Source: Candidatus Omnitrophota bacterium
Lineage (GTDB): Bacteria; Omnitrophota; Gorgyraeia; Gygaellales; Profunditerraquicolaceae
Length of the DNA: 64,000 nucleotides
Direction of reading: 5' to 3'
NCBI GenBank assembly: GCA_963805065.1
Contig: CAWDSS010000010.1
Location: forward strand, 472,359-536,358
Under the pieces are notes generated by a model that was not told the origin of the DNA, did no database searches, and was given only the letters and a program-made list of their open reading frames with translations. Shown piece after piece: positions 9,201 through 64,000 of the stretch. How positions within the stretch are numbered: position 1 is the first letter of the stretch; the number at the start of each line of letters is the position of its first letter. The position numbers and the translations under genes were made by a program.

Positions 9201-12200
9201 TTGGACCAAGGGCTTTAATATCTTCTTCTGTAAACCTTCCTTCTTTTTTATTAACTAGCTCTAACACGCCCATTACTAAACCTCTAGTTTTAAGTTTAAT
9301 AGGCATATACAATAAAGAATGCGGTCTTGGGCCTATAAAACTACTCAGCTCTTTGTCAAACGATGGGCCTGTTCCGATATTGTTAATGAAAAACCCTTTC
9401 TCTCTTTGTTCTTGGAGTGCTAAAGCGATATAGCCTTCTTCATGCTCCAGTAAGATCTTTTTCAAAAATTCTCTATGCGGGCTGGTCGAAGCTGCGCAGT
9501 AAAGATATTTAGCATTATCTTCTAAGAACAAAAACATGGAACCATACTCAGCACCTGTTGCCTCAAGAACAGCTTCAAGAATTTCTTTCACAAGATATTG
9601 ATTGCCCGAAGAGAGAAACCACTGGGCTATCTTTGTCAGATCAAAAGAAGAATTGTTGTAATTATTGGTGGGGGAACTGGCCAAGCGACTTTCTTGGTTA
9701 AATTTCGTGGGGATATTAAAATCCAAATTTTTAACTCTGTCTAATCTTCCTTCTTTCTCGCCAAATTTAACAAGTGCGATGCCATGTTTAGAAATCAGGA
9801 AATTCCAAAAAGGAAAATATTCTAAGTCCAAAGATGACTCGTCGTTACCATAAGTAATAATATTTCTTTGCGGAATGACAAACTGAGGCCTTAGACACCC
9901 TATCTCTTCTATCTCTTTTTTAACAATGGTTTCAATTCCGGCAGAGCAAATTACAACGCCTTCTAGGGAGAGATATAAAGAACTTAAATAATGAAGGAAA
10001 TAATTCTTTAAATTTGCTTCGCCACAATGCATGATTGCCAATAACCCTTTATTATTGGCCTTAAGTATCAGCATAGTGCAACCGTGGAACATAATGGAAG
10101 AATCTATAAGGTAATCGTGTTTGAATAAATACAACGGTTCTATCTCAAACAAATGAATATTCACGCGATATATCTTCTGCCTTCTTGCTCCTTTCAAGAA
10201 TTGGCACAAAACAGCACCATTGGTTCGCGCATATCCTCTATTCCCTATTTGAGACAGGTGAAAATGTGCATCTGTTAAAGCCAATCTATTCTGAGTATCA
10301 ATGACCGCCTCGGCATATTGTGCGACGATTATTTCCAGAACAACCCTATCGCCCCCCACAGCATCGCTGTTGGCGACACCTTCCGCCAATTGATGCATTT
10401 TGTCATTTTCTGACATTTGAATTCCTATCGGCGAACTTGTACTGAGTGTAGTCGAATTGCCGTAACGCTTGAACCACCTTGCCTGCTGAGATTCTCTTAA
10501 CGCTTGAACCGAATCATTGATGGCCTTTTCTTCGTCATCCAAGCTCTTCTCTAAATCTTTCCACAATTGAATTCCAAGAGCCGTCGGATTTTTCACAAAA
10601 TAGGACAGCACCTGATCAACCGCCTGCTTTCTGAAAAATAAAGTGATGATATACTCTGTATTACCCTTATCTAAACCTTCCAAGTGTACACCGCGTTCTT
10701 TAGCAAAATCGGAAATCTCTTGGGGAAGTTTATCAAAAGAAGAAAATTCAATATATCCCAGAGGAATCATGAAAGTGCTTGAAACTTGCAATATAGCGCT
10801 AATCATAAAATAATCGAGGTCCATCCCCTCTATATTGACTTCCAGATCATTCAAGCCAGGCCGATCCGCTATCATGAAATAGCCAAACCAAAACTGCGGG
10901 AACAAGGCGACGCCGATAACAATCTTCCACCACGCCAACAAAGGCAATAAAGATGCTTCATAAAAAACGACAAGCAACAAACCAACCCCTAAGGAAATAT
11001 TCATCAACGAAAACTTTTGCTGAGCGGATTGAATATCGAAGTCTTCTGGATGGCTTGGTGATAAAATTTCGTCATACTCTTCTGAGTCATTTTTGTAATC
11101 TAAGTATCGGTCAAACAGTTTTTCTAGATACTTTATGGATAAAATAATACCTGCGCCTAAAGAAACCTGAAGGCTGACTAAAATGAAGTTATGGGGTAGG
11201 AATAAAGCAAATATAGCGCCGCCGATTGTTACAAAAAACAGGCTCGATAACATGCTTACGGCAAAATACCGGATAACAAAGCTGGCCCTTGTAAAATCAT
11301 AAAACGAGTTCTGTCGCCTTTGCATTCTTTTTGCCTGAGCCAAGACAAACGTACTGACAACACCAAGCAGCGGCACAACAAAAGTGCTTGCATGAAATGC
11401 GATCGGAGAACTGCCTTTTTCTTGCTCTGTCTTGCCGTTTTTCTTCTGAACGTTCTTTGTTGCACTATTACTATTCTGAATAACAATTCGGCCTAGGGCT
11501 GCCCTTTCTCTCCCTGTTAAGCTCAGCGAGATTTCTTTTTCAATAATTTCAAAAAATGCCTTCGCATTTCTTTTAAGCTTAATTGCAAAATCACTTGCTG
11601 AAGGTATGTCAAAATGCGTTTTATTAACCAACATATATTGTTTTAATAAACTCACTGTTTCCTGACGATTAACTTTTAAGCCAATCAAAATAACCCTAAG
11701 GGACATCTGATCAATTATGCTGTCTTTATTAACGAATAGAAGGCCTTGTTTGATTATTTTTGGTATAAGAGAGGATAAAACGGTCTTATTTGTTGAAATA
11801 GCTGTATTGAGAATTTTGGGCTCCGTGGAATTTACCACCGCCAAAATTTCAGATAAACACTGCCTTAATTCTTCTTTTTCAGAAGCCACGGTAAATAAAA
11901 GAACATTACGGTATAACTTGTTAACTTTTTGCCTCATAGTAAAATCCACAAAAGCAGATGCTTCAAGGTGGGAAAATTTCTCGAATCTCTCTTGAGCTAA
12001 AAGCCTAAACAAAGTTTCTATGTGATCTGAGGATTGATAGGCATCCAAATGCTGAATCAGCGCTCTATCCCCAATCTCTTTGGCCACAAGACGCGCGGCA
12101 TTCAAAAATGGCACCTTTGCATAATGCGGATAAATATCTTTTACATTCCAGCCTATTCTTTTTAATAAAATCAAGGTGCGTTTAGCATCTTCCATTCTTA

Positions 12201-15200
12201 TTGCCTTGAGCACTTTTTTGATGGCACAACGTAATTGTTCTTCATTCTTATATGTTTTATAATAAAGAACCTTCCAAACAGCTTCTTCCATCTGCGCAAA
12301 GTTTTCCTGAGCCCTAGGAAACTTCAGGCCTAGGCGTGAATAAGTAAGCGCAAGAGCTGCGCGTATCTCCTTTATCGAGCAAGGTCTAGACAAAAGCCAC
12401 TCAGTCAATATCTTCTCTTCTGTCCTCCTGGCAATATACAATGCAGTGGCCTGCACATCACCTTTAAGTTCCGGATAGAGCTGCCATATAAAATTCGATA
12501 TGACGACAAAAGACTGGTAATAAAACTTATGCACACTCCTAAATTTATATTCTTTTAATTTAGCCAAATAATAATCAAGCCTGCCGGATAATTTTGTATA
12601 AATAAAATAGTAAGCCACGAAATCACCAACAGTATTCTCGTTCTGCAAAAATTTAGAGAATTTCATCCGATATTCAGTATAGAATAATACAAATGCGGCG
12701 AGAATATTGTCGTTTGAAAGATTTCGGCTTTTTCTTAAGAATCCTGCCAAAACAGACTCTTGGGTTTGCTCGGCAATAAAAAGCGCCGCAGCCTGCATAT
12801 CATTTTGCATCTGCGGATAAATCAAAAAAATCCTTTCCAAAATTCCAGGCAACACACCATATAGCAGAACATGCTTAGTCCTCTTGGATGATTTATTTTT
12901 TAGATTTCTTAAAGAGAAAATAAGGGATTTATTAATTTTCACAAAGCCTCTCAACGCAGTGGCATCTTTTAAGGCCTCTGCGCACTGTTTACGAAGAACA
13001 CTAAAGAACACCGCAAAGGCTATACGGATCTCTTGTTTTGCATACTTCTCATCCGAGCTAAAGAATTGTATCAGAACCGGCTCCTGTAATTTTTCTGCGA
13101 CCAAAAGTGCCAAAGCCTGAGAATCTCCTTTCTTCTCCGGGTGAAGTAAAGAAATCTTCCTAAAGATCTGAGGCAATATGCCATTAAAAAGCGTCTTTTT
13201 TGTTCTACCTGCTGGATTGTTTTTAAGATTCTCCAGTGAAGTTAAAAGTGAGTAATAATCATTAAAATTCTCCACTATCCGGCCGATATACTTATTCGTA
13301 TCGCAGGTCTTGTCCTTTAATTCCGGATAGGCCTCCCAAATCCTGGAATAAATTATATCTCTTAAAAGAGGCTTAAAAATTTTCACATTCATTTTTCCAA
13401 GATCATGGCTCACAAACTTAAGGCTTTTCCCAAGTGCCCTATACCTTTTGTAATCCTTAATAGTTCGCTCGATAAAATTAATATTTTTAAAAATATATTC
13501 GGGGAAAAGGCGCCTCTCACGAGAGAAAAACATTCTAAATAAATCCATAACCTTTTCCTCCTTCATTTCAGATTGTAAGTATTTCTTAAGCATTCTATTC
13601 TTTAATTCTTTAGCTAAGAAACGCGCCAAAGCCAATCGGCTATCTCCGATTTTCGCGGCTAAAAGCTCCTGCGCGCGGTACAGCGTCTTAAAGAGTACAT
13701 TAGGATGCCGTTCAGCAGGACGCGATTTAAAGTTATTAATGATCTTATCGATACGGGCCTTTTTCTGAGCTGCTTCATCGCTCCACCCCGGGATATAATC
13801 AGTAATAAGAATATCCTGTTTTTCTTTTTTATCTGTTGAGATGCTAGCGTTAGAAACACGCTGTTTATCATTAAGGTCGCGCAGATACCCTTCCTTATCT
13901 ATCAAGAATACCCAAGATTCATCGGTCCGCGTATTAACAAAAGCAAATCCTTTTGCAAAACCGTAAAATTTGATATAGCCATCAACAACCAAATCTTGAT
14001 AGTACTTATAGGCTTTATTTACGGATAGCTCCATCCTAATCTGGTTCCACGTCACATAAGCTCTGCCATCTTTTGAAAGTCGAACAATCTTACCTTGCCG
14101 CGCCTTATATGCCCGTTCTAAAAGATTTTCCAATTCCAGCATAAAACGGCTTCTGTTATACATTTCTCTCAACAATTCAGCTATCTCCTGAGGTGTTTTT
14201 ACAGGCTCATAGTTATATCCGAGCATACCTAAAGAACCATAGGTATAACCATAAGAAAGAACATTGGCGATATCTTCATCGAGTATGCCATGCTGTTGCA
14301 TGATTATAATTTCAGAAAGGATGTTTTTATAAAAATCTGCGATCGCAAATTCTGAATCTTTTTGATATTCAAGGCCGATCCCTAAAAGTTTATCGGCATC
14401 TGCTTTACGCCACAATTTATTTTCTTGATGGGCAAACCAGAAAAATTTGCTCTCCGCTGATTTCTTACCATTGGGGAATCTGAAAGCGTTTTTAATAATC
14501 TCTAGAGCAAAAGGATTAATTTCCCCTACTTCTTGCTTCAGCCTATTTAACGTATCCCTGACAAATTTCCGCCTGTTCTTTCGGACCTTTCTCTGTTCCA
14601 ATTCTTCTGCCCAATCCTTCACAGGACTACTCGTCTTGCGATCAAAGAGGGTCCCCAGTGGAACCGAACTGGGAGTTTCTGCATCAAGCGCCTGCCTGAT
14701 AAGCTCTTTATCGATAGGGCTGCCGGCGTCTTGCGGTCGCGCACTCTCAGTCGTATCTAACGGTAATGCATTGCAGTAATCCATCATCGCTCTCCGGATA
14801 ATTTCCTGAGTGATGGATGAACTGGCGCCGGCAAGCATGATCGATCTACTGGAAGACGCTATTTGGATGCTGGAAGGATTCCTGGATTCCGATATAACCT
14901 CTCCCACCATAAACCATGCATAGAGGTAAAGTGCCTTGATTTCTTCTAAGATCGGATAAGGTGGCCCCAAAGTTCTTTTTTTACCAAGCCTTTCTTTCTG
15001 AACCCATCCAGTTTCGTTATCCCAGAAACAATCCAAATAATAATCAGAAAATTTAATTTCAACCAACTTCGGATAAATAGAAGCAGGAAACTGTTCCTTG
15101 CGCTCTTTTGATATTTTTTCAAGACTAAAATAAGGAATGTAAGCCGTTGATGAGAAAAACTCAAGCTGGCGGGCAAATCGTTCCCAATCAACAGCTCTGG

Positions 15201-18200
15201 TAATCGCATTCTGCTGCCTCTTTGAAAATGCAGCAAATGCATTTTCATAACGACCTCTTAACAATGAAGCCAGCCAATTAATATGTTCCTCATTCTCCCA
15301 ATCAAAAGCACCCTGCTCCCAAAGACGTCTTGTAAGAATACGAGCCCAGGAAAATAGATAATCTCCTAAAAGGCTGACTAAAATGAAATTTTTCATGGCT
15401 TGGATAGGAACGTCTCCGATAAGGAATGTTGCCTTTGGAAAACGAGGTAAATGTCTTGATCTATTGTCACTATTCTCTATAATCTCATCCAATGTAAACA
15501 TATGTTCAAAATCAAAAGGCCCAGTATAGCTCACGTTTGGATATCCAGCCACCCCTAAGAAATCCCTTAACCGACCAACACCAATTTCAGCGCCATCGCT
15601 GCAAAACAAATCAGTCATCCACAAAAATCTCCGACCTGCGTGGAAAAGACTAATAATAGAAGAATGAATAATGCCATAGCGTGATAATTGAAACAAATCA
15701 TGCAAATTTAAATCCGAGGCCTTAATAAAATCCTCATCACTTATTCCCTTGTCCGTTAAATAATGAAGATAGGCAGGATTCGCCTCGTAAGCCATCGCTG
15801 TATAATAACCATCCGTATTATCTAACCTATATGAAAAACCTGAATTCTCTATCTGTTGTTCTAATGTTTCTTTGATCTGCAAAGGAATAGAATCAATCGC
15901 AATGCGCACCATCGCCTTATTGTCAAACCGGTGTAGATTAGGATATTCTGCTTTGAGTCCAAGCGTTTCTTTATTAATTGCTAAATAATCAAAAATTCTA
16001 CACTCACGAAGCATTTCTCCTGGAGCATCTTCCTTTCTTAGAAGTCTAATGACGAGAATTTTATCTTTTTTGTTTGTATTAAAAAGAAGCTTCCTTCCAA
16101 CGACTCCTTGCAATACTAATTCATTAACGCTTGCAAGGTCATTCCAGCGATAAACAGATACATCAGTTAAGTTTATGCTTTCAAAAACAGGCCATACTTT
16201 AGGCGGCTCTTCTAATTGAATCACAGGAAAAGCATCTGCAATTCCCCTAGTAAACCCAGACCAATCACAAGCAGAAAATCCCGGATCCTTGAATAAAATC
16301 TTTGTAGGAATTAATTCCCTTAGGGCCCCTTGAATAACCTCTTCGTCCAAGAGAGAATCTGACATAAGGCTAATTCCGACTAATTCTCCAAGCTCTCTAA
16401 GAATTCTTACGTATTGCGCCCTACCATAGATTTTTCCCGCAGTAAACTCTTGCCTTGAGACTTGAAGCGCTGAACGTAAATCAGAAATTATTTGAATTTT
16501 TTCTTCTCTGGTCTTGTTCATGAAAGATTCTTTTGTATATTCCATCGGGCTGCTCGCAAGCGCTCTCTTTTCAGAACCAATAAAAATACTATTATGGTTT
16601 TGTCCAACGTCTATCGTCCATTGACCATCGGCTAATCTCATTGGGCTGCCGGCGAAAGCTTCGGAAGGAAATATATTTTTAGCAGGCAGTAACCCTTCTG
16701 ACTGCAAGATGTCGATGAGCTCACTGATATGTGCTAATTTCTGGTTCAATCCCTTAAAGCTTGTCAAAAGCCTCGTTTCAGGCCTATGTAAAAATTCGTA
16801 AAGAGCCATGTCTTGCGGACTATTGCTTTTTAATGTTCCTTGCGATACCTCATGGACAAACTGATCAACTTTTTTGCTTGAACCTCTCTGGTAGAACTCT
16901 TTTTTGATAGATAAAATCAGGGAATTCAGATGTTCATAAAGATTTGACAAATCTACAAGGTTTTGCACCCTATCAAGAAGAGACTCTTTGCCGTCTTCCT
17001 GGTTATTCTCATACCCCCGTTTATCTTTAATACTCAATGGAACCAATAAGGGGGCAACTATTTTAATAAATCTGAGCGCCTTAAGATGATAGTAAATCAT
17101 GTTGGCCAAAATATTCTCTTCCGTGCCTACATCCATTGTGAGAAATTTGGGATTAAACTTATCTTCAAATTGCTGGCTTAAGACATAGACTTGTTTAAAT
17201 GATGCTACCGGCGCCTCCGGCTTCAACTCATACAATCCGATAAGAAGCGCGTTATAAATACCCCAGAGTTCTTCCCATTCAGGGTCAGACTCAACATAGC
17301 ACCCAACAAGATTCTCAAGATACCCCATAAACCTTTCATACGACGGGTCCTTTAAAGTCTGCATAGGGCTGTTGGAGTTAGGTTCATCTGACTTCTTTAG
17401 AGTTAAATTTACTGTTGAGCCATGATATCCTTTATATTGTATTATTCCGCCTCTTTCCACGCTCTCTTTTGGTGTTGCAACCCAGTTTAGGTAACGGTTG
17501 AATTGGTTAATTTTCTCACGAGCTTCAGTAAAATTATTTCCTTCAATTTCTTTATATATGTTATTCAGCGCCCGCAATAAAATACTTTTGGTAACGTGAG
17601 CAGGCATTTTTGATTTGAGACGGTTGATGTTCGTTATCAGTATGAGAAAATCTTCTTGGAGCAATGCTGGTTCCTTTTCGATTATATCCGCCCTTCTGCG
17701 TAACCCATCTAACCTTTTTCGCAACTCATCCAAATAAATACTCAACGAGACAAAAGCAACTTCTATGTGCTTCCCCGCAATAATTGCGATGGCTTGCACT
17801 AATTCTGAAAAATCCTCTGCTCTATTGCCGGCAATAAAGCCGATTAATTTTCTATAATTCCTTGCCACCGGTGAGCTGGTGGTTCGAGTTTGCTTGCCAC
17901 GAGCAAACGCTTTCTTCTGGGGGTAAATAAAATTATCTGTGTCTAAGTGCTTATAAAGTTTTTCCAAAACAGTATCCTCCCCTCGTAACAAAACAGGGCT
18001 GGAACCTTTGCGTTTGCGGAGCTGCTTTTCAGATTTGATCTCATTCAGCCTGTTTAGGATTATTTCAAAATAATGTTGCGAATTATCAAAAATGTATTTT
18101 TGTGAGGGCTTCTCGGCAGGCTTTCTTTCTTGGGCTTTTTCTAAATTGGACTTATAATGCTCTTCTAAAAGAGAAAGCAATTTTGTACTATCTATCTCAC

Positions 18201-21200
18201 CTGATATAACAGGGCTACCTGACTTATTTCCTTTTTTAGTAACTAGCCAAGAAGAAAGTACATCATTAAGTTGTGTTAAATCTTCAAGCTTACTCTGTAA
18301 TACTTCGCTCCACAAGTCCAACTCGTCATTCAAGTGCATGATGTCAGTCATATAGGCTTGTTCCCAGTTCTCAATGAACTTGTCTTTACCAGCCAATGAA
18401 AAATATTGGCTCATTACATCAGATAAATCTTCCTGTAGTTTCTTTACAAGAGCAAAAGTATTTTGAGCGTCTTCTAATAATATATCGACTTGGTTCAGTC
18501 TTTCTTTTCTCTGTTCCGATAAAGAACGGGCGTATTTACCTGATTTTAAAACATCTAACTTGTCTTGTACTTCTTTCATCCGCAGTACTACATTTATCAA
18601 AAGGTCAGTAATATTAACGTGTTTAACCGGGCTACTGCCGGATAAATTATCCAATAAATTATAATCGGTTGGTGGCTGGAATAGTTCAGTAGGAAGATCT
18701 TTTTTATAATATTGACTATATATATCCTCGGCAAATTTTTTAATTCTTACCTTACGCTGCTCTTGTGGTCTTTGCTGTTGTTCTTCATCAAACCTATAGT
18801 AATTATCAGGAATAAATTCTCTATGCTTAGGATTCCTTTCGCCAGGATAGTTAGATAAATCTGTCGCATACTTGATGCAAGTGTCTAAAGATGCTGCTCC
18901 TGCATAACCTTTATTCTTTGCCTCTGTGCCTGAAGGCCTAATCTCTAGCCAACCCCAATCAAACATAAGATATGTTTCATCTCCTACAAATAAAACGTCG
19001 GTAAGACCAGAGAAATCTAAGCTATTAAATGCTTCGGAGAGAATATCTTTAGCTTGATCTAAATCAATTAAACCTTGTCGCTTAGCTAAAGCAATACCCA
19101 AGAAATAAGTATCATTGGTCGAACGGATGATTAGCCCTTGTTTCTTGTCTACCTCTAACTTGGCCTTATCCGGCTCATTGGGATTATAATAAACTACATC
19201 GGATCTAAAATCACACCTACTTTTGATTTTATTGTGCGTAAATATATCTTCCAAATATTCTGATAACAATTTGTCTTCTTTTTCTATAAAGCCGGCTAAG
19301 GCGGCGGTTAATACTATTGCCTCTCCTGCGGATTTTTCTCTCATGGCAATGGCTTTCCTCTTTAATATCAGGCTCTCGATAAGTTCCACAGGGCCAAATA
19401 TTTCTCCTCCGGATTCTTCGCCAGCAAATAGCAATCTTGGATTTACGCCTAAATTAATCTTGTTGCCATATACATCTTCTATAATTACAACTTCGCCATG
19501 ATGTTCACGCATGTTCTTCTCTATTTTTCTCATAATTGCGGCGATTTCCTTAAAACCAACCGGCACATTGACAACAGGAACGCCGTTTGCTTCTGCCCAC
19601 TCATCCCATGAACGGCTTGATGCCGTAGTTTTAATAATAAACCAATTGTACTTCTGCCAATAACCTGCTTCCTGTAACGATTTTGCCTGATAATCAATAG
19701 TCATTAAGAAAGACTGGTTGGGGATATAAACAACCAGCATCTTTTCATCATCTATCGGCATGTAAACAAGCCCAAGTTTCTTAATACGCTCCATATTGCT
19801 TAACGATTCAATCTGAGCTGTAACAAGTCTGTCTCCATCGGGATCAGTAATTAAAACAACTGTGCCTACCGGCACTCTTCTTAGGGTCTTTTGGTACCCC
19901 ATTGTTTCAATTACGGGAAGGGTAATTCGAGTTGTATCTATAACTAAAATCTTATTACCTAAGCTTATATAAGGAATATTTTCTTGCTTTAGACGAAGAA
20001 TAACTTTCTTATTTTCTATTTTTGCAACAACCTTACCAATGGGGGGCTGATTAATAAATATGATACTGCCAGCAGGTACATTCTTAAATAATTCAATAAA
20101 CATTTCTTCCTTGGACTGAATCAGTTCCATGATCTTTGAAGCAACTTTTTCTTTATTGATAGCCACCACTGTGGCATCACAAGAAAAATCATAAAATCTC
20201 AAAGAAGGCCTATTGTCGGATTCACCAATTTTTAATTCATAACCTTTGCCGATGCCATGGAAGAAAGAATCTTGTTTAGTATGCAGGAAACGGAATGACT
20301 TTCTTATGCCTAGATTACGGAAAATGCCGTTCATAATCTGGTACGTACAACCACCCACGCAGTCAATAATGATTGGTTTTCTTGCCCCCCTGATTAAACT
20401 AAGGTTAATTTTTGTAGCGACGCCCTTCTTAAGGTAAGGTACATAGAGTTTTATGCCGCCGTCAAGTTGTTCTAAGATATCTGTTCGAATAAATTTGCTA
20501 TCAACAGAGGCGATGCGGATTTCATAAAAACCTTTTTCATCGATAATCGCAAAGATCTTCTCTATCTCATCCAAGAATTCCTTGGATTCATTGGGTAGAT
20601 ATTGGCTTCCTTCATTATTGATATCTTTTGTAGCTGTGGTGGTAGCGATCGCGTGGCTGGCTGTAACATATTCTGCTCCCAAGAGATCCAGCATAAAAGC
20701 ATCAAAACAGGCCAACCAGATAGAGGTCTTTTTCCCTTTTATAGGCACTAAAGTTGTAATACCGTAGGCGGCTTGTAACCTTGCGATGAGCTCTACGAAT
20801 AAATCCGAATTGTAGCGCACTTCAGAAGAAACAAGCTTATAGAGTGTTCTCTCTTGATAATTCTTTTGGGCTGCTAAAATTTTTCCCAAGGTAGCTAAAA
20901 GTATTGAGAAAAGATTAATCGGATAAGAGATTCCTTTTGGGGTAACTCCCGGATAGTAAGGGTAGAGTACATTTTGATCCCCTCTGGTACCCGCAGTAGA
21001 AATTTCCGTTTCCGGTTTAAATTTCTCATAAAACCATCTTCTTAACCCTAATCCGTGAGGATTGTTCATCTCATCATAATCTTCAAGATGTTGTTTATTT
21101 AAGGTGATACTGAATTCTCCTTTTTCCGAGAGGTTTATAATATTTGCTAAAACTTTATCTTTAACCCAGTCTGGCGTAGATTTATCTATACTATCAAGCA

Positions 21201-45200: not shown

Positions 45201-48200
45201 ATTTCTTATGCTTTTTTTCTTCGCTGTATTCTGTATGTAAGTCTTCTAGTAAATCTTCATATCTTAAATACCATACATCTGCTATGCCTTTGATTAATTC
45301 TAAATAACCTATCAATTCTTCAAGTGTTTCTAATTCAGCTAGTAATGCAGGTATAAAACCTCCCTGGAAAGTAATCCGGTAGAAGAAAGATTGATATTTG
45401 GCTAAATCAGTTGCAAAATCTTCGAGCTTATCCAATCCTTGAGCATATTTAGAAATATTGTCTTTTGACCATTTAGCTAGGCTAGGTACGGCATGCATTA
45501 AGACGCAGCATGGCAATAGCCCTTTATCTATTAATTTAATACCCAAATTAAATGAAAGTTTTAAAACCTCATTACTTTTTTCAAAATTACTACTAACTCT
45601 TATCAATTCTTTAACTATTATTGTAATATTATCTAAGGAGAATTTCTTTTGCTCGAGTTTCTGTTTAAATAAAGCCAAGATGTTCAAAGGCTCTCTGTTA
45701 TAATCTAATTCTGCTATCTTAAGTAATGAGTCTGCTGCGTATAAATCCTCTGTTTCCACTGTTATTTTAATCAAGGAATCTACTGAATCATAACCAATTG
45801 CAGTTAATACATGAAAAACTCTATTAGGATATCGACAATTCTTTGATTTGAGTGCACTTATGAGTGGATTGATTGCGCGTTTCCTTTGTTTAATAAGAAT
45901 ATTCGTCAGATCTGAGCGATTCCCTTCAAAGTCATTAACCATGTACTTTACTAAAAACTCTATATCTGGAATCGAGAGGTTCTGATATTCCATACGAGAG
46001 TAATAACGTAGTATTTTGTTAAGTTTCTTTTGTTCTTTTCTTCGTTCTTTATAATCTTTTGGTTGCAATACAACATCACTAACTATAGCTAGTAATATAC
46101 CTGTAACAAGAGTTAGTCCTAACCCGGAAGAAAGTACTATATCATAAGTTGAACATCCTCCAATTAAAGATAATAAACTAAACAAAAGTAAGATATATAT
46201 ACTTCTATAATTAATAATTTTATTTAATAAGCTTATTTTAATTGACTTGCTATAAGATTTATTAATCAAAGCGCAGAGCGTTTCCTTAGCTTTAATTTCA
46301 TCATATCCGGCTTTATAAAGCAAGGCTTCTTTGGCTAAGTCAGGTTGAGTGGTATATAGTGCTACGGTGAGTTCTGTTTGCTTTTGTGAAGCTTCCCGGT
46401 CTTTCTTTTGCGCTTTGAGAGCAAAGATTTCTTTTAAGGCTGCATGATTAGCTTTGGCTAAGTCTGGGGCACGGACTTTAAGATATACTAATTCATTCTC
46501 CAATACCTTCTTATATGCTTCTTTGGTCCAATCGTATAACATCTCTTTAGCTTTGGCTTCATTGTAACTGGCTTTATAAAGCAAGGCTTCTTTGGCTAAG
46601 TCAGGTTGAGTGGTATATAGTGCTACGGTGAGTTCTGTTTGCTTTTGTGAAGCTTCCCGGTCTTTCTTTTGCGCTTTGAGAGCAAAGATTTCTTTTAAGG
46701 CTGCATGATTAGCTTTGGCTAAGTCTGGGGCACGGACTTTAAGATATACTAATTCATTCTCCAATACCTTCTTATATGCTTCTTTGGTCCAATCGTATAA
46801 CATCTCTTTAGCTTTGGCTTCATTGTAACTGGCTTTATAAAGCAAGGCTTCTTTGGCTAAGTCAGGTTGAGTGGTATATAGTGCTACGGTGAGTTCTGTT
46901 TGCTTTTGTGAAGCTTCCCGGTCTTTCTTTTGCGCTTTGAGAGCAAAGATTTCTTTTAAGGCTGCATGATTAGCTTTGGCTAAGTCTGGGGCCTTAGCTT
47001 TGATGTTCCCTAGTTCGCTCTCCATTAATTTTCTATATGCCTCTTCAGTCCAAGTGTAGAGCATTTCTTTGGCCTTAGCTTCATCATAGCCGGATTTGTA
47101 GAGCAGGGCTTCCTGGAAAAGCACGAGTTGATCTTTCAGGTTATGTATAGTTAAAACCAATTCATAGAAAAGCTTTTTGGCTTTATCTAGATTGTTATCA
47201 GCATTGTCCAACATAAGCGCCTGAGCGGATTGAGAAGCTTCATTCCAAATCTCCTCTATGAGCGCTTGTTTATATTTATTGAGGGCGTCTTTAAATACCT
47301 TTTCTTTTGCTTTCTTTTGATCATTATTTGTAGCTTCTAAGGCAGCGGCTTTGGTATTTTCGTCAGCAGTATTCCATGTTTGGTCTATTAAGCCCTGAGG
47401 TGCTTTTTCTCTATCAAGAGCTTCTTTTAATTCCCTTGCGTGCGTCCAGGCAAAATTGTGGGCATGGTTAAAAGCAGCTATCAATTTAGTTTTCTCAGAT
47501 TTGTTTAAATCTAGGAGTTTATTCCTAAAAGCGGCCATAAAGAAGATACCATTATCCCAAAGTTGAGTAGCAACTTCTTGTTTTTGGACAGTAACGTGCT
47601 GTTTGTTTTCTTTCAGGCTAAAGATTTTCGCTAAGCTGGCGTGATTTGTTTTAGCCAAGTCTAAAGTTTCATCTATAATGTTGTCTAACTCATCTTCCAT
47701 CATCTTCCTATATGCCTCTTCAGTCCAGGCATAGAGCATTTCTTTGGCTTGAATTTCATCATAGCTGGATTTGTAGAGCAGGGCTTCTTTGGCTAAGTCA
47801 GGTTGAGTGGTATATAGTGCTACGGTGAGTTCTGTTTGCTTTTGTGAAACTTGCTGATCTTGCTGTTGCGCTTGGAGAGAAAGGATTTCTGCTAAGCTGG
47901 CGTGGTTTTTACTAGCTAAGCCTAAAGTACGCATCTTAATATCAAATAACTCATTCTCCATGACCTTCCTATATGCCTGCTCAATCCAATCGTATAGCAT
48001 TTCTTTGGCTTGAGTTTCATCATAGCCAGCTTTATAGAGTAAGGCTTCCTGGGATAAGAGAGTCTGGATGTTATATAGTGTTTCAGCGAGTCCTGTTTGC
48101 TTTTGTGAAGCTTGCTGCTCCTGCTTTTGCGCTTTGAAAGAGAAGATTTCTTTTAGGGCTGCGTGATTAGTCTTGGCTAAGTCTAGGGTTTTAGATGTGA

Positions 48201-51200
48201 TGTTATCTAGCTCACTTTCCATTAACTTCCTATATGCCTCTTCAGTCCAAGTATAGAGCATTTCTTTGGCTTGAGTTTCATCATAGCCGGCTTTGTAGAG
48301 CAAGGCCTCTTTGGATAAGACAGCTAAATTGTTGTATAGTGCTGCAGTGAATTCTGTTTGCTTTTGCGAATCTTGCTGGTTTTGCTGTTGAGCTTTGAGA
48401 GAGAAGATTTCAGCTAAGGTGAAATGATTTGCTTTGGCTAACTTATCAGCTTCAAAGCGGATAATATTTGCTTCTCTTTCCATATGAATTATATATGAGT
48501 TATAAATTAACGTGTCCAAATCTCCATAATTACCTTTTAAATCCTCGAACAACTGTTCTTCCTGTGTGGTTAACCTTTCTTCAATATGATTCTTAAGATA
48601 ATCTCGCACTTCACTAACTCCCAGACCCACGAGGTTACCAAGAACTATATTGTCTATTTTTCTATAAATCGGCAACTCAGTGCCATAACCAAGATATTTG
48701 TACACAACACCTATCTCTTCTTCTTTGCCTGGGAATAAAGGAGCTTGCTCTTTAACTAAAACCATGCCTTTTCCGTCATTCCAATGCGTTAATGTATCTA
48801 ACGCCTCTATAAACGCCCTTTCAGTTTCCTTTTGACTGATATCAATACCCAGCTTACCGGCAAGCTGCGCTATTGTGTAAACCATATAAATTGGAGGATG
48901 CCTATTAAAATATTCATCGAGCTTGCCTAATAATTCATTCTTGAGCTTGCTGAAGCGCCTTGCCTTTAGAATGCTACTGATTGGGCCAATAGTTAATAAG
49001 CCAATCCATAAATAGGAACTCCAAATTTCATGGATACCCAAGAAATTAATGAGATTTGAGCCGAAAAGCAAGGCTATAACCGATACTAAACCAGACCATG
49101 CATACCATTTATATTTTCCTGCATTTTCAACAATAGGATTCCAGACTGCATCAATAGTTGCCATTCCAACTTTACCGCCTTGGATATATGCCCGATAAAC
49201 GTTGCTATCAGGGAAGTATTTTCTCTTAACTGGTTTTAATGGTATTAAACCAAATAACCTTACGCCTTTATAAGCGAAGGTTTCTTTGCCTACTTTTAGC
49301 TCTTCTCCACTCCCTGTCTTTACGCCAAATCCTAAAATAAACAAGTCCTTCATAGCTTTTCTGAACATAAACCAACCACCAATAACCATCTCTATAACCC
49401 TCTCTCTGCGGTGTGCTTCCAATACCAACCAGCTAGCCAGTATCAATAAAGTAGGGATAGGCACAAATAAGCTATAAACACTTAATAAGAGAATGGTGGC
49501 AGTATCAGCAGATGTTTGCCTGCCGGTTAATGCGCTGCCATTTATTAAATCTTTAACCTTCAATATAAACCATACGCCTAATATGCCTGCCAAAAAGTAA
49601 TATCCTAAAACTAGGGATACTATTAAGCCTGTGGTACCCATAACCAACGGGACTACCTTACTTGAAGTGCGTGGTTCGGTATCCAGAGGATTATAAATAA
49701 ACATACCGCCGACCCAGTTATACATCATCAGGATGAACAAAGGAGCAACAAATAAGAATAGACTAGGTTCGTATGCCGCGAGCGTAAAAAGTAGTAGTAA
49801 AACGGGGGCTGCGGGCCGCGCTCCAAAGATATGGCGTAACAGTAAAACTCCATAAGTTTCTTTCTTGCTAGCCGGCTCTCTTGTTGATACCCTGAAATCA
49901 AAGAAACCCTTGAGGCCTCTTCTAAGGGCTGAATTGTCATACATCGGGATAAGCAGGGTAAAAATCCAGAAATAACCCGGATCATAGGCAGTGCCTTTAA
50001 TGAATGACAGTAGCCCTTTAGGTGAGCCATATTTTAAATTAAGCATGGCAACAGTTGCAAAGTTGATAGCCATAGCCATGCTGTAACCGGCTAATACAAA
50101 CATCCAATTAATTGGGAACGCATACGCAGGATTAATAGGCAAGACAACTGCAAATATATTAAATATGACATTAGTAATAAGGACTGCCAATTTCAAGCCA
50201 TAGAACGAACCCGGGGTATTTTGGTTATCATATTTTTCATTTAAAGGAATATTCGGGCTGACATTGAAACGCACAGCGCCTAACATATCCTCTAACTCTT
50301 CCTGGTCGGCAATATATTTCTCTTCCGGGTCAGCATTAAGGCCAACACTTTCACCCTTGCCGCCATAGAAATTAATCGCCTGAGTATAATACACTGAAGG
50401 GCCTTCGTTACGCATCATCAACACAAAATAAGCATCTTCTGCTACCAATGTATAAGGCAGGCAGATTGCCGGCATATTCCAAACATACTTATAGTCTGAG
50501 GCTATATTGGCTTTGGGTTTACGCGGCCTTACCTGTAAATCTACTTTAGCGCCGCCGCCTCTCCCGTAGAAAAGGACCATACCTTTCAGGGACTTCACCA
50601 ACTGCACCATAAAAGTCCAGGTAGTTTCAGAGATTTTAAACCCTCGCCTGACTATGGTGGCATCCGGGCTTATTACATCCATTGCCATAAGTAACACGCC
50701 ATATTCAGGATGATTAAAATGAGAAATAACATTCGGTAAGAACATACATCTACTAAATGTACGGTGATGTGCTGCGTCTCCATAAAGCGCAAACGAAGTT
50801 AAATACCTTAAGTTCAATACCCAGCCCATGGCTTTGTATTGTGCATTTGCCTCTCCAAAACGTAACCTGCCGGTCATCATTGCTGCTCGCCAGGCGTCAG
50901 ATGCTTGAGTTGGAAAGCTATCAAAATCAGGATGAATATTTGCCCATAGTATCAGATGCTTTTTTAACAACTCAGATATGCCCGTAAGATTACCTTGAAG
51001 CAGATTATCAATCTTAGTGCCATCTTGAAGTTCTTCTTGTAATGATAAATACTCCTCTTTTTTCTTTTCTAATTTTTCTCTATCTTCGGGTTTTTGTGGC
51101 TTTGCTAAGGCTTTATTACATTTTTCTATCTCTTTATTTATTAATCGAGATAATTCTTTTTCTCCCCTATATACCCGGATTAAACTCTCCAACAAAGTCA

Positions 51201-54200
51201 TTCCCGGAATCTTATAGGGATGAACAAATTCTTTATCATTCAAATCTTCCCATGAACATTCAGGGAAAAGCCCTCCTAATTCAGGGCCATTGAGATTAAT
51301 AATATTAATATTTTCTGGCCTAGAAGTATATTGTATCAATTGGTCTTTAATGTTTCCGCCAAGCCCACCCCAACCCATAGCATTAAAATTAATTTTATGG
51401 CGTTCGTCTATCAATTGCTCCAACAATCTATCAGCACGTAAATATGTTTCTTCGTCTTTGTCAAATTTGCCATACCTTAAGAAAGATTCAAACTCATCAT
51501 CCAGAAGGAAACTCAAAGAAACCCAATGTCGTCTCTTCAATTCTCCCAACAAAGCAATATTCTTGCCATCAACTTCCTTTGCAATGTCAGCTTGATTTAG
51601 AACAACTTCTATCTTATTCCTCAATGCAATCCTTTCTTGTGTTTCTCTACCGGTATTTGTATCTCTTTGCGACCCGAATGTCTCTTTCAGTTTCTTGTAA
51701 GTCTTAGGTAATTCTTCCTCTCTGGCCTCACCTTCCGGCATATTTTCTGACTTGTCCTCCAGCCCGCTTTCTAATTCATCTTCTAACCACAAACGCAACA
51801 CTTCTCTATTAAGCTTGCATGATTCGACGCTTCTTAAGATGACCTGCTGCGTAAAATAAACCCACTCGGAGATTTTCTCTAGTACCAAATCCTGCTCTTC
51901 CTTATTAAGAGATAAGCTACTTAGGATATCATTTGCAGCTTTAGGTGATTCAAACTTAGCTGCTAAAAGCTTGGCTTTATCTGCCTCTGTTTTGATATAG
52001 CCGTCTATAAATAATAATTCCACAAAGTATTTCCATTCTGCGCTATAGGTATCTATAAGATTATATAGCAAGGTAGGATAAGCCACTGACTTTTTATCAG
52101 ACTTGCCTGTCCCTTTTCCTTGAGAATCAGTTAGTTCTTTTACTAAACCAACAATGCTGTTATTGCCTACCCATGGCGGGCCAACCGGCTCTTGATAACC
52201 GGAAATCTGGTCTGTTATATGAGGCGCTTCTTCAAAATACATCTCTAAAGCCGGGATTCCTTCAGGAGCATTCTTGGTGAAATAGGTATTCAAATACCAC
52301 CTCAGCTCATCCCGCATCTCTGAAATTAAATTACCCGGCAGCCGATACTTAGAAAGTTCCCTGTATTGCTCAACGCCAATCTTACGCGACAATAGCCATT
52401 TATTTAAGTTTATCTGATAACGTGCTAAACCACGCTCTCGTAATTTCGCATTATCTGTCTCTCCCTTGAGGCGGAAAATGTTGAATCCCAACCTGACTAT
52501 AATTTCAGTAAGTTTATAAATATTTTTTAACAAATAGGAAATTATAGAGGCTATGATAAGACCTTTCGCCATCTGAGATACCAAAGCCGCGCCAACCAAT
52601 GTTGCTATTCCAAAATAATTATTCATTAATAGGATTGCCGTGTTAATCCCTATGGAAATAAACTCTAATGCACGTATCCTAAATAATATAAATTTAGCTG
52701 AATATAATATAAGTTTAGCTAAATCCCAAAGGGAAGCAGTTCTGCCCATTAATTTAAGCCCAAACTTAATCTCGCTATCAGTACTAAGAGTGTAGCGACC
52801 TACTTCGCGATGGGCCTTGCGTGACACTAACCAAGTGCCCCAGGAATTAACCGCACGGACCATAAGGAAACTGAACAACATCCATATAGAGTGCATTAAG
52901 GGTATTATCAATGCCCAGTGAAGGAAGGTATCCAAGCCCACAGCTAATCTTTCTGGAGGCATGCTGAATATCCACATGAATACCAACATCAATAAGGAGA
53001 GGCGCGGGACAATCCACATGTACATCCTGGTATAATACTTGACGCCTTCCTTAACCTTTTGCTTATCTTTCTCCGATAGCTCATTCCATTGCTCTTCGGA
53101 CATGCCTGTATGAATCTTATGCTTTTTATCATAAAATCTCGTTACACGCGGATCATTAAGCTGTTCAGCAAGAACGTTAAGGAAACCTGGTTTGCCTTTG
53201 GTATGTTCTTCAATAAAAGCCTTAATGCGCTTATTCAACCTGTGATAAACTATTTTATTAATCCCCACCCAAATAAATCCAACTAATGCCGCGATTAATA
53301 ATGTGGGGCCTGCCAATAATAAAGTAATGGCAAAAATATTGAATGACTGCGAAATCAATAGTGAGCTGGTCATAAAAGAACCCAACACTTGAGCCACCAG
53401 AGGAATTATAAGATTGATGCCTGCTACTACATATCCCAACATAAAGTACTTAGCCGCCAACACTGCCGAGATACCGATTAAAACCCACTTTATGGTATTT
53501 GGCCAGAAATGAAGCAAACGCAGAGGCCGCAGATATTTCTTGGGGAACGTTGAGATAAATATTGTTTTATTCTGTCTAACTTCTTCTATCTCTTTGGCTA
53601 AGGCTTCATCTTCTGCCTTGAGCGAATCCATGATTTTATCAGGAACGATTTCATAGCCAGAGAGAGAATCAACCCTGTTAACTAAATGCGTGTTTTGTGT
53701 TCTTTCCAGGGCATGCTTTAACTCATTAACAGTGAGCTTGCCCTTAAAATGCGCAAGTAAGTAGGAAACGAATTTCGAATCCACCAATTCATGCAACAAC
53801 ACAGAACGTTGATTATGTTCGAGCGCAATCAAAATTTGCACTAAAAGCTGTTTGGAAGGTATATGTTCATCCTGCAAATCGCGTAGCGAAACGCCGTTCT
53901 TTTCTTTAAGCAATTCTGTATTTATCTTTTGCTCAAGCACATCTTTCAGCTTGGTTTCCTGACCACTGGCATCCCGCTTAACAGCCAAATTCTTTAAATG
54001 GCCTAAATTGACCTGCAATACTTCAAACGGATCATTGTAATCACAATAAGCGTAAAGCAAGTTCCAGCCCTCTTCTTGCAAAGTGAATCTCCAATCAAAC
54101 CCTTCGGTCTTTCTTATCCTATCGCTAAGTATTTCATTAAGTTCAACTTGAAGCAACATGTTTGCCAAGACAGTTTCGTCTCTGAATAACTCTACAATTT

Positions 54201-57200
54201 CCTTAAGCCAGCCGGTTTTGGGAGCCTCGCCCCTTGCCTTCTTTTGGGCTTCCATTTCTTTTGCGGTTTTCATGGCATATTCATAGAATCCCTGTTGTGC
54301 CTGCTGGCCACCCGCGGCAAATTGCATGATAAATGTAAGTGCCAAATCTCTGGCTGGCATGTCCGCCCAGCCGCTTTTCTTATCCAAGGTAGAACGCCTA
54401 ACCCTAATATACAATCCATCGGCTGCTATTGCATCCTCATCAACCTCAGCATCTCCTTCTACCAAAAGCCCTTCCCTAGTTTTTTCCAGCATTTTTGCTA
54501 CAATATATTTACGAGTATCTAATTTATAATTCTTTCTTGTGGTATCTATTTTTGCCAAGCGCAATGCTTTCCAATCTTTTTCATTATCTGTTAAGCCATA
54601 TTCATCAAGGTAGGAATAATATTGTTTTTTTCGTGCTGCTATTATCGCTTTAACGAATACCCGGTAGCCAAGTAAGCGATTGCCAAATAGATAGTAAAGC
54701 ACGCCTAAACCATCCTTGACGTCTTTTATTATTTCCTTCAGCTGCTCAATATTAAAAGTATTTCTATTAGCGAGCAATCTCTTTAAACCTAAACTAACCT
54801 GCGGGAATATAGTTTCTAATCTATTCTTAAACTCTTCCTCATCATTGATATTCAATAGTTCCTCCAGCCTGGCTTTGCTATTCTTATTAACTGGGGAGCC
54901 GGCAGACGGAGGATTAGTATTCGATTGCCTATCTCTAGTAGCAGCGGCCTGAAGATTATTCCTCTTTGACTTCCATAACTTGATAAAGTTAAGAACAACT
55001 TTTATAATGCTTGCCAGCGCTACGATAGAAAACACAATGAAGACAGTGGCTATTAATATCGTATTATTGGCTATAGCAAATTGAGATTGCCCTGCATCAG
55101 TTTTTGTTTCACTCTTGGAATAAATGGAGCGTTGGTTATCTATATCGTTGTTAACTTTTCTCTCAACATTGACTCTTTCTTGTTTGGTTAATAAGCCCAA
55201 GGCTCTGTCTGTGAAATCTAACCAGCTAGTTTTCGTTCTCTTCCAATAATTACTAATTATGCTGTTATCAACCACCCTATCCCTAAATCCCTTGTTAAGA
55301 TAATGCTCTCCTCCTTTTGTTTCAGTGCGGTATTGCGTCTCATGTACTGACATAAGCTTTCCGTTAAAATAAACTCTCCAGGGTGTGCCGCTTGAGAATG
55401 GCACATTAGGATGTTGTTCTAGCCACCGCGAGGCATCTCCTTTTAAACCAGCCCTTGCATTTGATTCATAAACAAATACCCAGCCAAGCCTATTGTCTGT
55501 CGTTACAATCAAGTCCTTATCAGGCACAAGAACAGATAAATTAAAGTCTAATTGGCTTAGCCTTAAATAAAGCCTGTCTGGTAATTCAAACTGGTCATAA
55601 GCAAGCGCGGATTTACGAGGGAAGAAGCCCTCAGTTTCATAACCCCCAAAGAGACGCCTTCCGTCAAATCTTAAGCCTATGGTTCTTAAAGAATCTTCCC
55701 TCGTGTCAACTGTATCATAGACTATGTTGCCATTCTTAAACCTTAAATTAGCAACATATGCTACCCAATCACTATCTTGCCAATCATCTATTGAATTTTT
55801 AAACGGATTGTTTCTTGCCCACCATCCAGGCTGTGCATATTTTGTAACATCGGTGGATTTACGTGGCTCATATTTATATGTATAGTTCTTTTCAGCGATA
55901 CCTAAGTGAGACGGCCCGATATCAATAATAGAAGCGGGGCTTCGTTTGTGAATAAAGAAGGAAATATAGGAAGGTACACCTTCTGATCTGCCTGTTATTT
56001 CATTAATCTCAGGGTATTCTGAGAAAACATAGGACAATCTTCCTTCCCCATCTTTTACTTCGCGAGTCGCATCTACTATAGCTCCAAAAGCAAAGTAAGG
56101 CCTTATTTCAAAATAAGAATGAGGACTATACTCTCCAAGTTCTCCTCTAATTACATCGTTCGTAAATAGCCCGGGATTAATATTCCTTAAATAAGAAGCT
56201 TTATAAACTTGCTCGATGGCGTTTGCAAATACAGAGGTAACACCTCTGATGCCAATACTATATTTACCCCATAAATCATCTCGATAGAAGGTATAACCTT
56301 TTAATTCCGGATTTTGATTAAGATCAAAAAATTCCGTGAGTCTAACCCTGCCGCGCCAATCTGAAGTCCTTTGAATATCTATTTCTTCTTCTTGGGGTAA
56401 GATATAATTAACCCGATGCAGACTAGTGATATCTTTATAATTAATATCCTGTAGTTCAGACTTCTCAACGGGATGGCTATTAAAACCTTGAATGGCCAAG
56501 AGATAAGGATAAGTTGATACAAATGCCTGAACTTCGACATATTTTAAGTATGCGGGGTTGTAAGGGACTTCATTCTCATACTTCAAATCAAGGAAAGCCC
56601 TAAGCATGAAGTTGTCGTTCATAAACTGCTCGACTGCGGATTTGCGTTGCACATAATCCGGCTTGGCAGCGAGCATGTCGATGGTGCCTTCAATTTCCTG
56701 GCGCGTAAAATAATGTTTCTTGGAGAGTGTATATTTTTCTCTTAGATAAGGAATAAGATAGGCCTTGTTATCGGTGTCAACTCTCAGGTAATCCCTGACT
56801 TCAAGCAAGCCTATCTGTTTGACGTAATCCAAAACAAGGGTCTTTTGCGGTGAAATAAACAAGCTGTAGGCAACTTTTTCATTAAGCGCAATATCAAATC
56901 TCACGCTGGCATAGACGCCGGCGAGATCTCTTAACACGATATCCATAAAGCCGTTGCTGATGCTTACTACCGGCATATCCTCTTCAGGCACAAAGCCCTC
57001 AATAATTTCTTTGACTCCCACTCCCTCGGGTGAGAGATATGTCCTCTTAAAGAAGTCTATCCTCTCTGTCTCAACGCCCTGCTGTTTTAAAATAGCGAGG
57101 GCATCTTCGCCTAAGGTAGATTTATCAACTTTTCCGGAATAACCGATGAGCTGTCCATTTTCTTTTAAGTAATCATTCTGGCCGGCCTTATGGCCTCTGT

Positions 57201-63999: not shown

Positions 64000-64000
64000 G
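61090..64000 (-). repeat. 88-aa (264-bp) tandem repeat array: at least 10 identical units plus one degenerate terminal unit, continuing past the window end
   Basis: The unit is TLQDIINSYKNAASFNQQGGLDAVRLLYTDLAGVKFLGTTDEKIGVSTKSAVLRQIVFDAVANIGKTSIKGVDIDTGAVITTTLDTAL. DNA identity with period 264 runs from 61277 to 64000. Nine identical antisense shadow ORFs in the track, spaced 264 nt apart, confirm this. The degenerate unit lies at about 61090-61276. Confidence 0.95.

Follow-up and report, generated by a model that had tools for sequence, protein, structure and literature searches.

Few objects in microbial genomes are as poorly understood as the giant genes of bacteria, which run to tens of thousands of codons. 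It is an acknowledged question whether their products persist as single chains or undergo cleavage, and another which face of the membrane their enzymes occupy. Both are raised by the window analyzed here, a stretch of 64,000 nucleotides (nt) from a Candidatus Omnitrophota bacterium (assembly GCA_963805065.1, contig CAWDSS010000010.1, positions 472,359 to 536,358), in which an earlier note had described transmembrane (TM) helices interspersed among enzymes of cytoplasmic type. That layout was regarded as a topological puzzle that processing into separate proteins would resolve, and as indirect support for a polyprotein. In the explanation we favor, the window comes from the interior of a giant Omnitrophota gene that exceeds 64 kb and belongs to the "multi-enzyme" type, and the product of that gene would be a single chain stapled to the membrane by helical hairpins, with its enzymes on the cytoplasmic face. 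We place the probability of this whole explanation, giant gene and topology taken jointly, at roughly 0.55.

A six-frame scan of the window revealed a single stop-free frame on the minus strand, spanning bases 1-63999 (21,333 codons) and open at both ends, which marks it as a fragment from the interior of a giant gene. Each of the other five frames has 872-2072 stops, or 0.04-0.10 per codon. Amino acids (aa) are counted from the N-terminus of this fragment, with aa i corresponding to bases 64000-3i to 64002-3i, and all clusters and modules described below lie on the minus strand within this frame. The log10 probability of such a frame arising by chance, computed with the base composition, is about -653. 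Neither chance nor the joining of unrelated pieces could thus produce it, which argues against the window being an assembly chimera or a repeat-collapsed construct whose hydrophobic segments are incidental. The GC content is moreover uniform across 58 kb, at 0.37-0.43, real domains occur all along the one frame, and giant open reading frames (ORFs) of 80-147 thousand amino acids (kaa) with the same domain set have been documented from long-read assemblies. What could be cited for an artefact are two perfect tandem repeats (264 nt in 10.3 copies at 61277-64000 and 261 nt in 2.6 copies at 46309-46992), the higher GC content of the last 6 kb, at 0.44-0.51, and the absence of the exact window sequence from genome and metagenome contig collections in an exact 43-mer search. 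We regard an artefact as extremely improbable.

Hydrophobic segments were located by a Kyte-Doolittle (KD) scan and by a re-implemented Hessa-type scan of insertion free energy (dG). Both scans returned hydrophobic segments exactly at the eight positions where TM helices had been noted earlier, and the segments form eight sharply bounded clusters, here designated A to H. The raw count of hydrophobic windows was found to be a weak test of significance (47 versus 33 in shuffled sequences at KD>=1.6), and a clustering test was used in its place. The window contains 22 segments with dG<0, compared to 8.8 in shuffles, and 18 of these have a neighbor within 100 aa, compared to 0.5+-1.0 (maximum 4) in shuffles. 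The soluble stretches between clusters, which reach 4,400 aa, are nearly devoid of hydrophobic segments. The best model has approximately 38 helices, or about one per 560 aa, in keeping with the earlier estimate that an uncut chain would cross the membrane dozens of times.

A check on the need for processing had been set beforehand, namely that an even number of helices in every cluster would keep all soluble modules on the cytoplasmic side and remove that need. We parsed the chain with a dynamic-programming procedure of our own, in which non-overlapping helices and an orientation are chosen by a score combining helix hydrophobicity with a positive-inside term, and swept it across 39 parameter sets on three scales, dG (15 sets) and KD and Goldman-Engelman-Steitz (GES) (24 sets). 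Clusters B, C, D, F, G, and H were even in 33-39 of the 39 sets (85-100%). Five of the six are predicted to begin and end on the inside: cluster B (52528-53496, aa 3502-3824; 36 of 39 sets), with 6-8 TM helices arranged as hairpins; cluster C (48961-50205, aa 4599-5013; 36 of 39), with about eight; cluster D (46066-46218, aa 5928-5978; 39 of 39), a two-helix hairpin; cluster F (34783-34926, aa 9692-9739; 39 of 39), another two-helix hairpin, with an uncharged turn of 7 aa; and cluster G (24664-26283, aa 12573-13112; 34 of 39), with about 12 helices. The sixth, cluster H (10744-11403, aa 17533-17752), was even in 33 of 39 sets, with four strong helices forming two hairpins (aa 17574-17711) and two marginal ones. 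The layout thus comes close to what the check specified, departing from it at one place and perhaps at a second: cluster A (54982-55062, aa 2980-3006) is a single span, predicted N-out/C-in in 32 of 39 sets, and cluster E (38680-39099, aa 8301/8327-8440), with three clear helices and a marginal one designated E0, was parsed with three helices in 18 sets and with four in 21.

Manual inspection of the clusters revealed the same pattern in their charges. They are built as hairpins with nearly uncharged turns of 1-29 aa, while Lys and Arg abound in the loops between hairpins and in the flanks of the clusters. The outer loops in the helix model are likewise 1-29 aa long, except for one of 75 aa, and Lys plus Arg make up 98 of 449 residues (21.8%) on the inner side and 7 of 185 (3.8%) on the outer side (Fisher p=1.5e-9). 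The background is 12.7%, so that the two residues are overrepresented on the inner side and underrepresented on the outer. In cluster B, for example, the two long loops hold 18 of 78 and 9 of 54 Lys/Arg residues and the turns 0-1, and the flanks of cluster D hold 5 and 9 per 20 aa. The even parity of six clusters and their Lys/Arg-rich flanks together indicate that the chain leaves and re-enters the membrane on the same side, which is probably the cytoplasmic one. Cluster A has six Lys/Arg residues in the 20 aa of its C-flank and two in its N-flank, suggesting that the domain-less, repeat-rich part upstream lies outside and everything after it inside. Only unannotated sequence borders this cluster, and it therefore creates no conflict of sidedness. 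By amino acid composition, the predicted outside segment S0 upstream of A was not separable from the other soluble segments.

Such alternation is well known on a smaller scale. By the positive-inside rule of von Heijne, the charged loops of membrane proteins are expected in the cytoplasm, and polytopic proteins with large cytoplasmic domains are anchored by helical hairpins. The window shares with these proteins the even hairpins, the short uncharged outer turns, and the Lys/Arg-rich inner loops, but differs from them in scale, with about 38 helices in eight bundles and soluble stretches of up to 4,400 aa in one chain. We would accordingly picture one polypeptide that is made and inserted co-translationally. 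The stop-transfer-like helix of cluster A would divide the upstream part, probably exported, from the remainder, and the chain beyond about aa 3,007, with its regulatory and sugar-metabolism modules, would lie on the cytoplasmic face over at least 18,000 aa. Every 0.5-4.4 kaa, one of the bundles B-H would staple these modules to the membrane, each bundle having an even number of spans that returns the chain to the side from which it entered and exposes only short turns outside. No cleavage would be required for this arrangement. A separate membrane role, such as transport or sensing, is possible for the larger bundles B, C, and G, which have 6-12 helices.

The modules between the clusters, assigned by Pfam and PDB-sequence searches, are largely of the kind described earlier. 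Three S-adenosylmethionine (SAM) methyltransferases were identified, the first at 35353-35811 (aa 9397-9549), the second at 33400-33654 (aa 10116-10200), and the third at aa 21085-21190, which shares the region 430-2874 with a HAD-like hydrolase (aa 20376-20562). The region 28000-32301 encodes a starch/glycogen-synthase-like GT5 module (aa 10567-11080) followed by a conserved GT-B/phosphorylase-like module of about 900 aa (aa ~11100-12000), and Pfam placed a PGM/PMM-like module at 19240-20424 (aa ~14526-14920). The remaining modules include a GNAT acetyltransferase (44167-44385, aa 6539-6611), a NAGPA-like phosphodiester glycosidase (39247-39735, aa 8089-8251; E=1e-7) directly upstream of cluster E, HEAT repeats (aa 8508-8734), TPR and DUF4135 domains, and a GAF domain with an HD-GYP cyclic-dinucleotide phosphodiesterase (8623-9594, aa 18136-18459; 4mcw, E=3e-47). 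The nucleotidyltransferases that had been claimed fared less well: they correspond to a PF01909 match below the Pfam cutoff (E=0.0025) and to a SidJ-like kinase fold found among PDB sequences (15637-16107, aa 15965-16121; E=2.5e-5). The latter matches the kinase-fold core of Legionella SidJ, a calmodulin-dependent glutamylase, and is an effector-type fold.

Clusters A-C sit in the first ~6,000 aa, in which essentially no domain was recognized, and the problem of placing modules on the correct side is therefore limited to clusters D-H. There, some cofactor motifs are intact, notably the canonical HDIGK...HHERYDGKGYP of the HD-GYP module and the QGQGLG acetyl-CoA motif of the GNAT module, and the glycine loops of methyltransferases 2 and 3 are near-canonical. 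A requirement for cytoplasmic ligands is thus to be expected for at least some of the modules. Other motifs are degenerate, including the glycine loop of methyltransferase 1, motif I of the HAD-like hydrolase (DVGNT), and the KxGGL motif of GT5 (MAGGL).

These degenerate motifs are in keeping with a different arrangement, in which most of the soluble modules form an exported enzyme array in the periplasm, at the cell surface, or in prey, and the TM clusters anchor it from outside. For Archaeovorin-type giants, predictions based on TMHMM did place modules outside, with most domains predicted to be extracellular (West-Roberts et al. 2023, bioRxiv 10.1101/2023.11.21.568195), although the same authors term some of the predicted localizations "highly unlikely". 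In the window, the loops and flanks that adjoin modules are the ones enriched in Lys and Arg, and the turns are free of them, the opposite of what an outside location predicts. The HD-GYP and GAF, GNAT, and SAM methyltransferase modules with intact motifs likewise speak for the cytoplasm. We consider export of the array quite unlikely.

Several observations nonetheless weigh against a cytoplasmic stapled chain, and some of them would be accommodated by export. One is cluster E, whose clear helices lie at aa 8327-8350, 8392-8411, and 8417-8440. It was parsed as three TM helices running from outside to inside in all 15 dG sets, and as four helices beginning and ending inside in 21 of the 24 KD/GES sets; E0 (aa 8301-8325, dG +4.6) is accepted only by these simpler scales. 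Helix E1 is strongly N-out/C-in, and the domain immediately upstream is the NAGPA-like one, a family that is usually extracytoplasmic. There is no TM candidate between aa 6700 and 8300 that could carry the chain outside, even though the upstream cluster D robustly begins and ends inside. A segment at aa 6635-6658 would have reconciled the odd count as a hidden TM helix, but it contains two Lys and a His, has a dG of +1.6, and is contiguous with the GNAT fold, and it was rejected. A single-sequence AlphaFold2 (AF2) model of cluster E, of low confidence (predicted local distance difference test score, pLDDT, 38), has a helix at aa 8301-8320, which we take as a weak hint only. The corresponding model of cluster H was also of low confidence (pLDDT 47), and both are too poor for helix counting or fold searches. 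The orientation of cluster H is itself ambiguous, beginning and ending inside with dG and outside with KD/GES.

The methods contribute further reservations. The parser is home-made, and the dG scan is a re-implementation. The Lys/Arg statistic is partly circular because the Lys/Arg term took part in helix selection; the effect is large even so, and the term played no part in defining the hydrophobic segments. For the TM clusters no homologs were found on which a helix count by conservation could be based. The 601-aa, 12-helix module of cluster G had none in either a word-indexed search or an exhaustive phmmer search of 1.84e9 representatives, and the NAGPA-like domain together with cluster E had none in the word-indexed search. 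Scans of each cluster against Pfam at E<=5 returned noise only and no plausible family. The clusters, as at 10876-11403 and 24664-26283, may thus be fast-evolving or lineage-specific.

The last of these observations comes from relatives of the window. Only the module at aa ~11100-12000 has detectable relatives, at 28-46% identity and inside proteins of 1.9-5 kaa; a further match, P0012, covers the adjacent aa 10484-11093 at 50% identity. Source names were available for 10 of 12 homologs (28-50% identity), nine of which are labeled Omnitrophica/Omnitrophota and the top match Elusimicrobiota. The window itself carries no marker gene. All eight relatives with complete N-termini open with a sequence that, judged by eye, resembles a Sec signal peptide, and methyltransferase, GH77, GDE, or GT-B modules follow directly. 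In P0002 and P0003 the methyltransferase, GH77, and GDE domains come after this N-terminus with no TM segment between, and a naive reading of that order would put such enzymes outside. The N-flank of the first TM cluster in P0002 is Lys/Arg-rich, however, as in the window, which argues against export there too. The simple stapled model thus fails at cluster E beside the NAGPA-like domain and at the signal-peptide-like N-termini of the relatives.

The same eight complete relatives (P0002-P0011, loci L001-L003) share a homologous N-terminal domain of about 500 aa with an IQ[DE]AH motif, of which the window has no internal copy. The signal-peptide-like N-terminus and this domain may be the hallmarks of a family of large exported proteins in Omnitrophota. 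The genes of P0002 and P0005 are complete, stand alone, and have ordinary genes around them, and that of P0002 adjoins genes for a glycogen-debranching enzyme, pyruvate kinase, and glycoamylase. The presence of the same modules in much smaller stand-alone genes indicates that modules have been shuffled among proteins of very different size.

We then consider whether the chain is cut, as the earlier note supposed. The side on which a module lies is fixed while the chain is inserted co-translationally, and a cut made afterwards therefore cannot carry it across the membrane. Processing could not have resolved the puzzle in the way proposed, and with the parity of the clusters nearly even, the topology lends it no support; what remains is a simple and testable architecture of cytoplasmic enzymes stapled on one chain, in which topology drops out as an argument for processing. 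A giant chain cut by embedded or host proteases into separate membrane-anchored and soluble enzymes would nevertheless be compatible with the stapled topology. West-Roberts et al. have proposed that C39/S8 peptidase domains, located close to the N-termini of such genes, bring about cleavage, and the occurrence of the window's modules in stand-alone genes of 1.9-5 kaa implies that they can function in smaller proteins. Pfam scans of the 21,333 aa, run at relaxed thresholds for the TM clusters, turned up no protease family, and the clusters gave no significant profile match to transporter families or to the site-2/M50, M48, and CPBP protease families. SecA_DEAD, C39, and S8 peptidase domains had no Pfam match in the window, which covers neither the N-terminal nor the C-terminal part of the gene. 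No recurring boundary motif was seen at the module junctions, the chain has only one isolated HExxH and one lipobox-like motif, and the published proteomics are too sparse to reveal separate products (West-Roberts et al. 2023). With the topological need for cleavage taken away by the parity of the clusters, we judge a polyprotein possible but unlikely.

The two isolated motifs could be cited for processing. HELGH (aa 12680-12684, 25948-25962) is the only HExxH in the 21,333 aa, where 0.36 would be expected by chance, and is located where a TM helix of cluster G ends. A membrane metalloprotease-like site is one possible reading, but the module has neither a profile match nor a homolog against which conservation of the motif might be checked. 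Cluster G was considered as an M50/site-2 protease and rejected, as it gave no profile match and neither the Asn nor the Asp of the NxxPxxxLDG motif is present in its "…IPPLG…" helices. The cluster also contains a duplicated three-helix unit (aa 12756-12849 and 13022-13112, 41% identity, E=6.5e-17) and parses as two halves. The second motif belongs to helix D1 (aa 5928-5949, 46153-46218), which resembles an internal lipoprotein signal peptide (…NKIINYRSIYILLLFSLLSLIGG/CSTY) with a lipobox-like …SLLSLIGG/C. The protein has 0.5% Cys, and no other lipobox-like motif in it occurs in a signal-peptide-like context.

Together the two motifs allow a speculative variant, a chromosomal polyprotein that would be cut at the membrane by the orphan 12-helix HELGH module and by host signal peptidases at internal signal-like helices such as D1. 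We think this a long shot. Were it true, dozens of membrane-tethered enzymes would be released, as in flavivirus polyproteins, and the exported modules might have prey cells as their target, acting either inside or on them. Viral polyproteins such as those of flaviviruses have their own protease and signal-peptidase sites at defined junctions and distribute their modules over both sides of the membrane. The analogy, implied by the polyprotein interpretation of the earlier note, holds for the long ORF in which soluble enzymes alternate with TM segments. Unlike those polyproteins, the window yielded no protease domain or recurrent junction motif, and its predicted parity keeps the modules on one side.

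The stapled single chain is best compared with the giant genes already reported from Omnitrophota. These extend to 85,804 aa, have "numerous transmembrane regions" with an ambiguous topology, and are hypothesized to be cleaved via C39/S8 (West-Roberts et al. 2023, bioRxiv 10.1101/2023.11.21.568195). A catalog of 916 long Omnitrophota proteins includes a "multi-enzyme metabolic" class with Pfam Modules 1 and 2, whose content is described as compatible with the cytoplasmic face, and for its four giants of more than 100 kaa it reports 68-331 TM helices (2026, bioRxiv 10.64898/2026.06.07.730766). The ORFs of this class lie far above 10 kaa, its membership threshold being >10,000 aa, as does the window with its 21,333 codons. 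Module 1 (PF08241, GNAT, HAD, HD) and Module 2 (PF08323, PF00534, PGM/PMM) are represented in the window by PF08241, PF00583, PF13419, HD, PF08323, PF00534, and PF02880. In the class and in the window alike, many enzyme Pfams tile the chain with none dominant, HEAT/TPR scaffolds, internal repeats, and large Pfam-free parts are present, and TM helices occur along the chain, here about 38 in eight clusters. The density of about one helix per 560 aa compares with one per approximately 370-2,400 aa in individual giants of >=100 kaa in the 2026 preprint. The window differs in that its best relatives reach only 28-46% identity over a single module. Flanking type II/IV secretion or pilus genes are a further mark of Omnitrophota giants; the window is occupied by the ORF throughout and includes neither flanks nor the gene ends, where a signal peptide would lie.

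Archaeovorin-type giants (West-Roberts et al. 2023; Kizina et al. 2022 as cited there) resemble the window in having a giant ORF, numerous TM regions, and divergent enzymes that include SAM-methyltransferase-like folds, and the same questions of topology and cleavage apply to both. In contrast to these giants, Pfam searches of the window found no SecA_DEAD, C39/S8 peptidase, dockerin, or carbohydrate-binding domains, and its content is regulatory and of glycogen-type metabolism rather than for cell-wall degradation. The giant-gene type, the abundance of TM helices, the cytoplasmic-face reading, and possible cleavage are thus already published, and the window adds a member of that class. Hairpin parity is analyzed in neither preprint and the Lys/Arg alternation is not in that of 2026; both are described here for the window.

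Within aa 1-5000 (49000-63999), neither a Pfam family (E<=1e-3) nor a PDB sequence match (E<=0.01) was found, and this part is domain-less although under selection to stay open. A 356-aa unit at aa 6826-7582 (41254-43524), which also has no Pfam family, is present as a tandem duplicate with 97% identity and coincides with a local GC bump (0.43). Approximately nine tandem repeats of about 87 aa (46216-48483, aa 5173-5928), with 55-69% identity, stop exactly at cluster D; a weak DUF5749 match falls within them, as does the perfect 261-nt repeat. The window has only three other ORFs of >=150 aa (21956-22459, 36314-36916, and 57337-57816, plus strand); each is antisense to the giant frame and probably spurious. 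At the N-terminal end of the fragment, the 264-nt array (aa 1-~990) has an 88-aa period and at least 10.3 copies with 100% nucleotide identity, and it extends past the window end, while further copies decay to 83-97% protein identity. The array coincides with the rise in GC content, and its origin could be an expansion in the very recent past, gene conversion, or a fault in the assembly.

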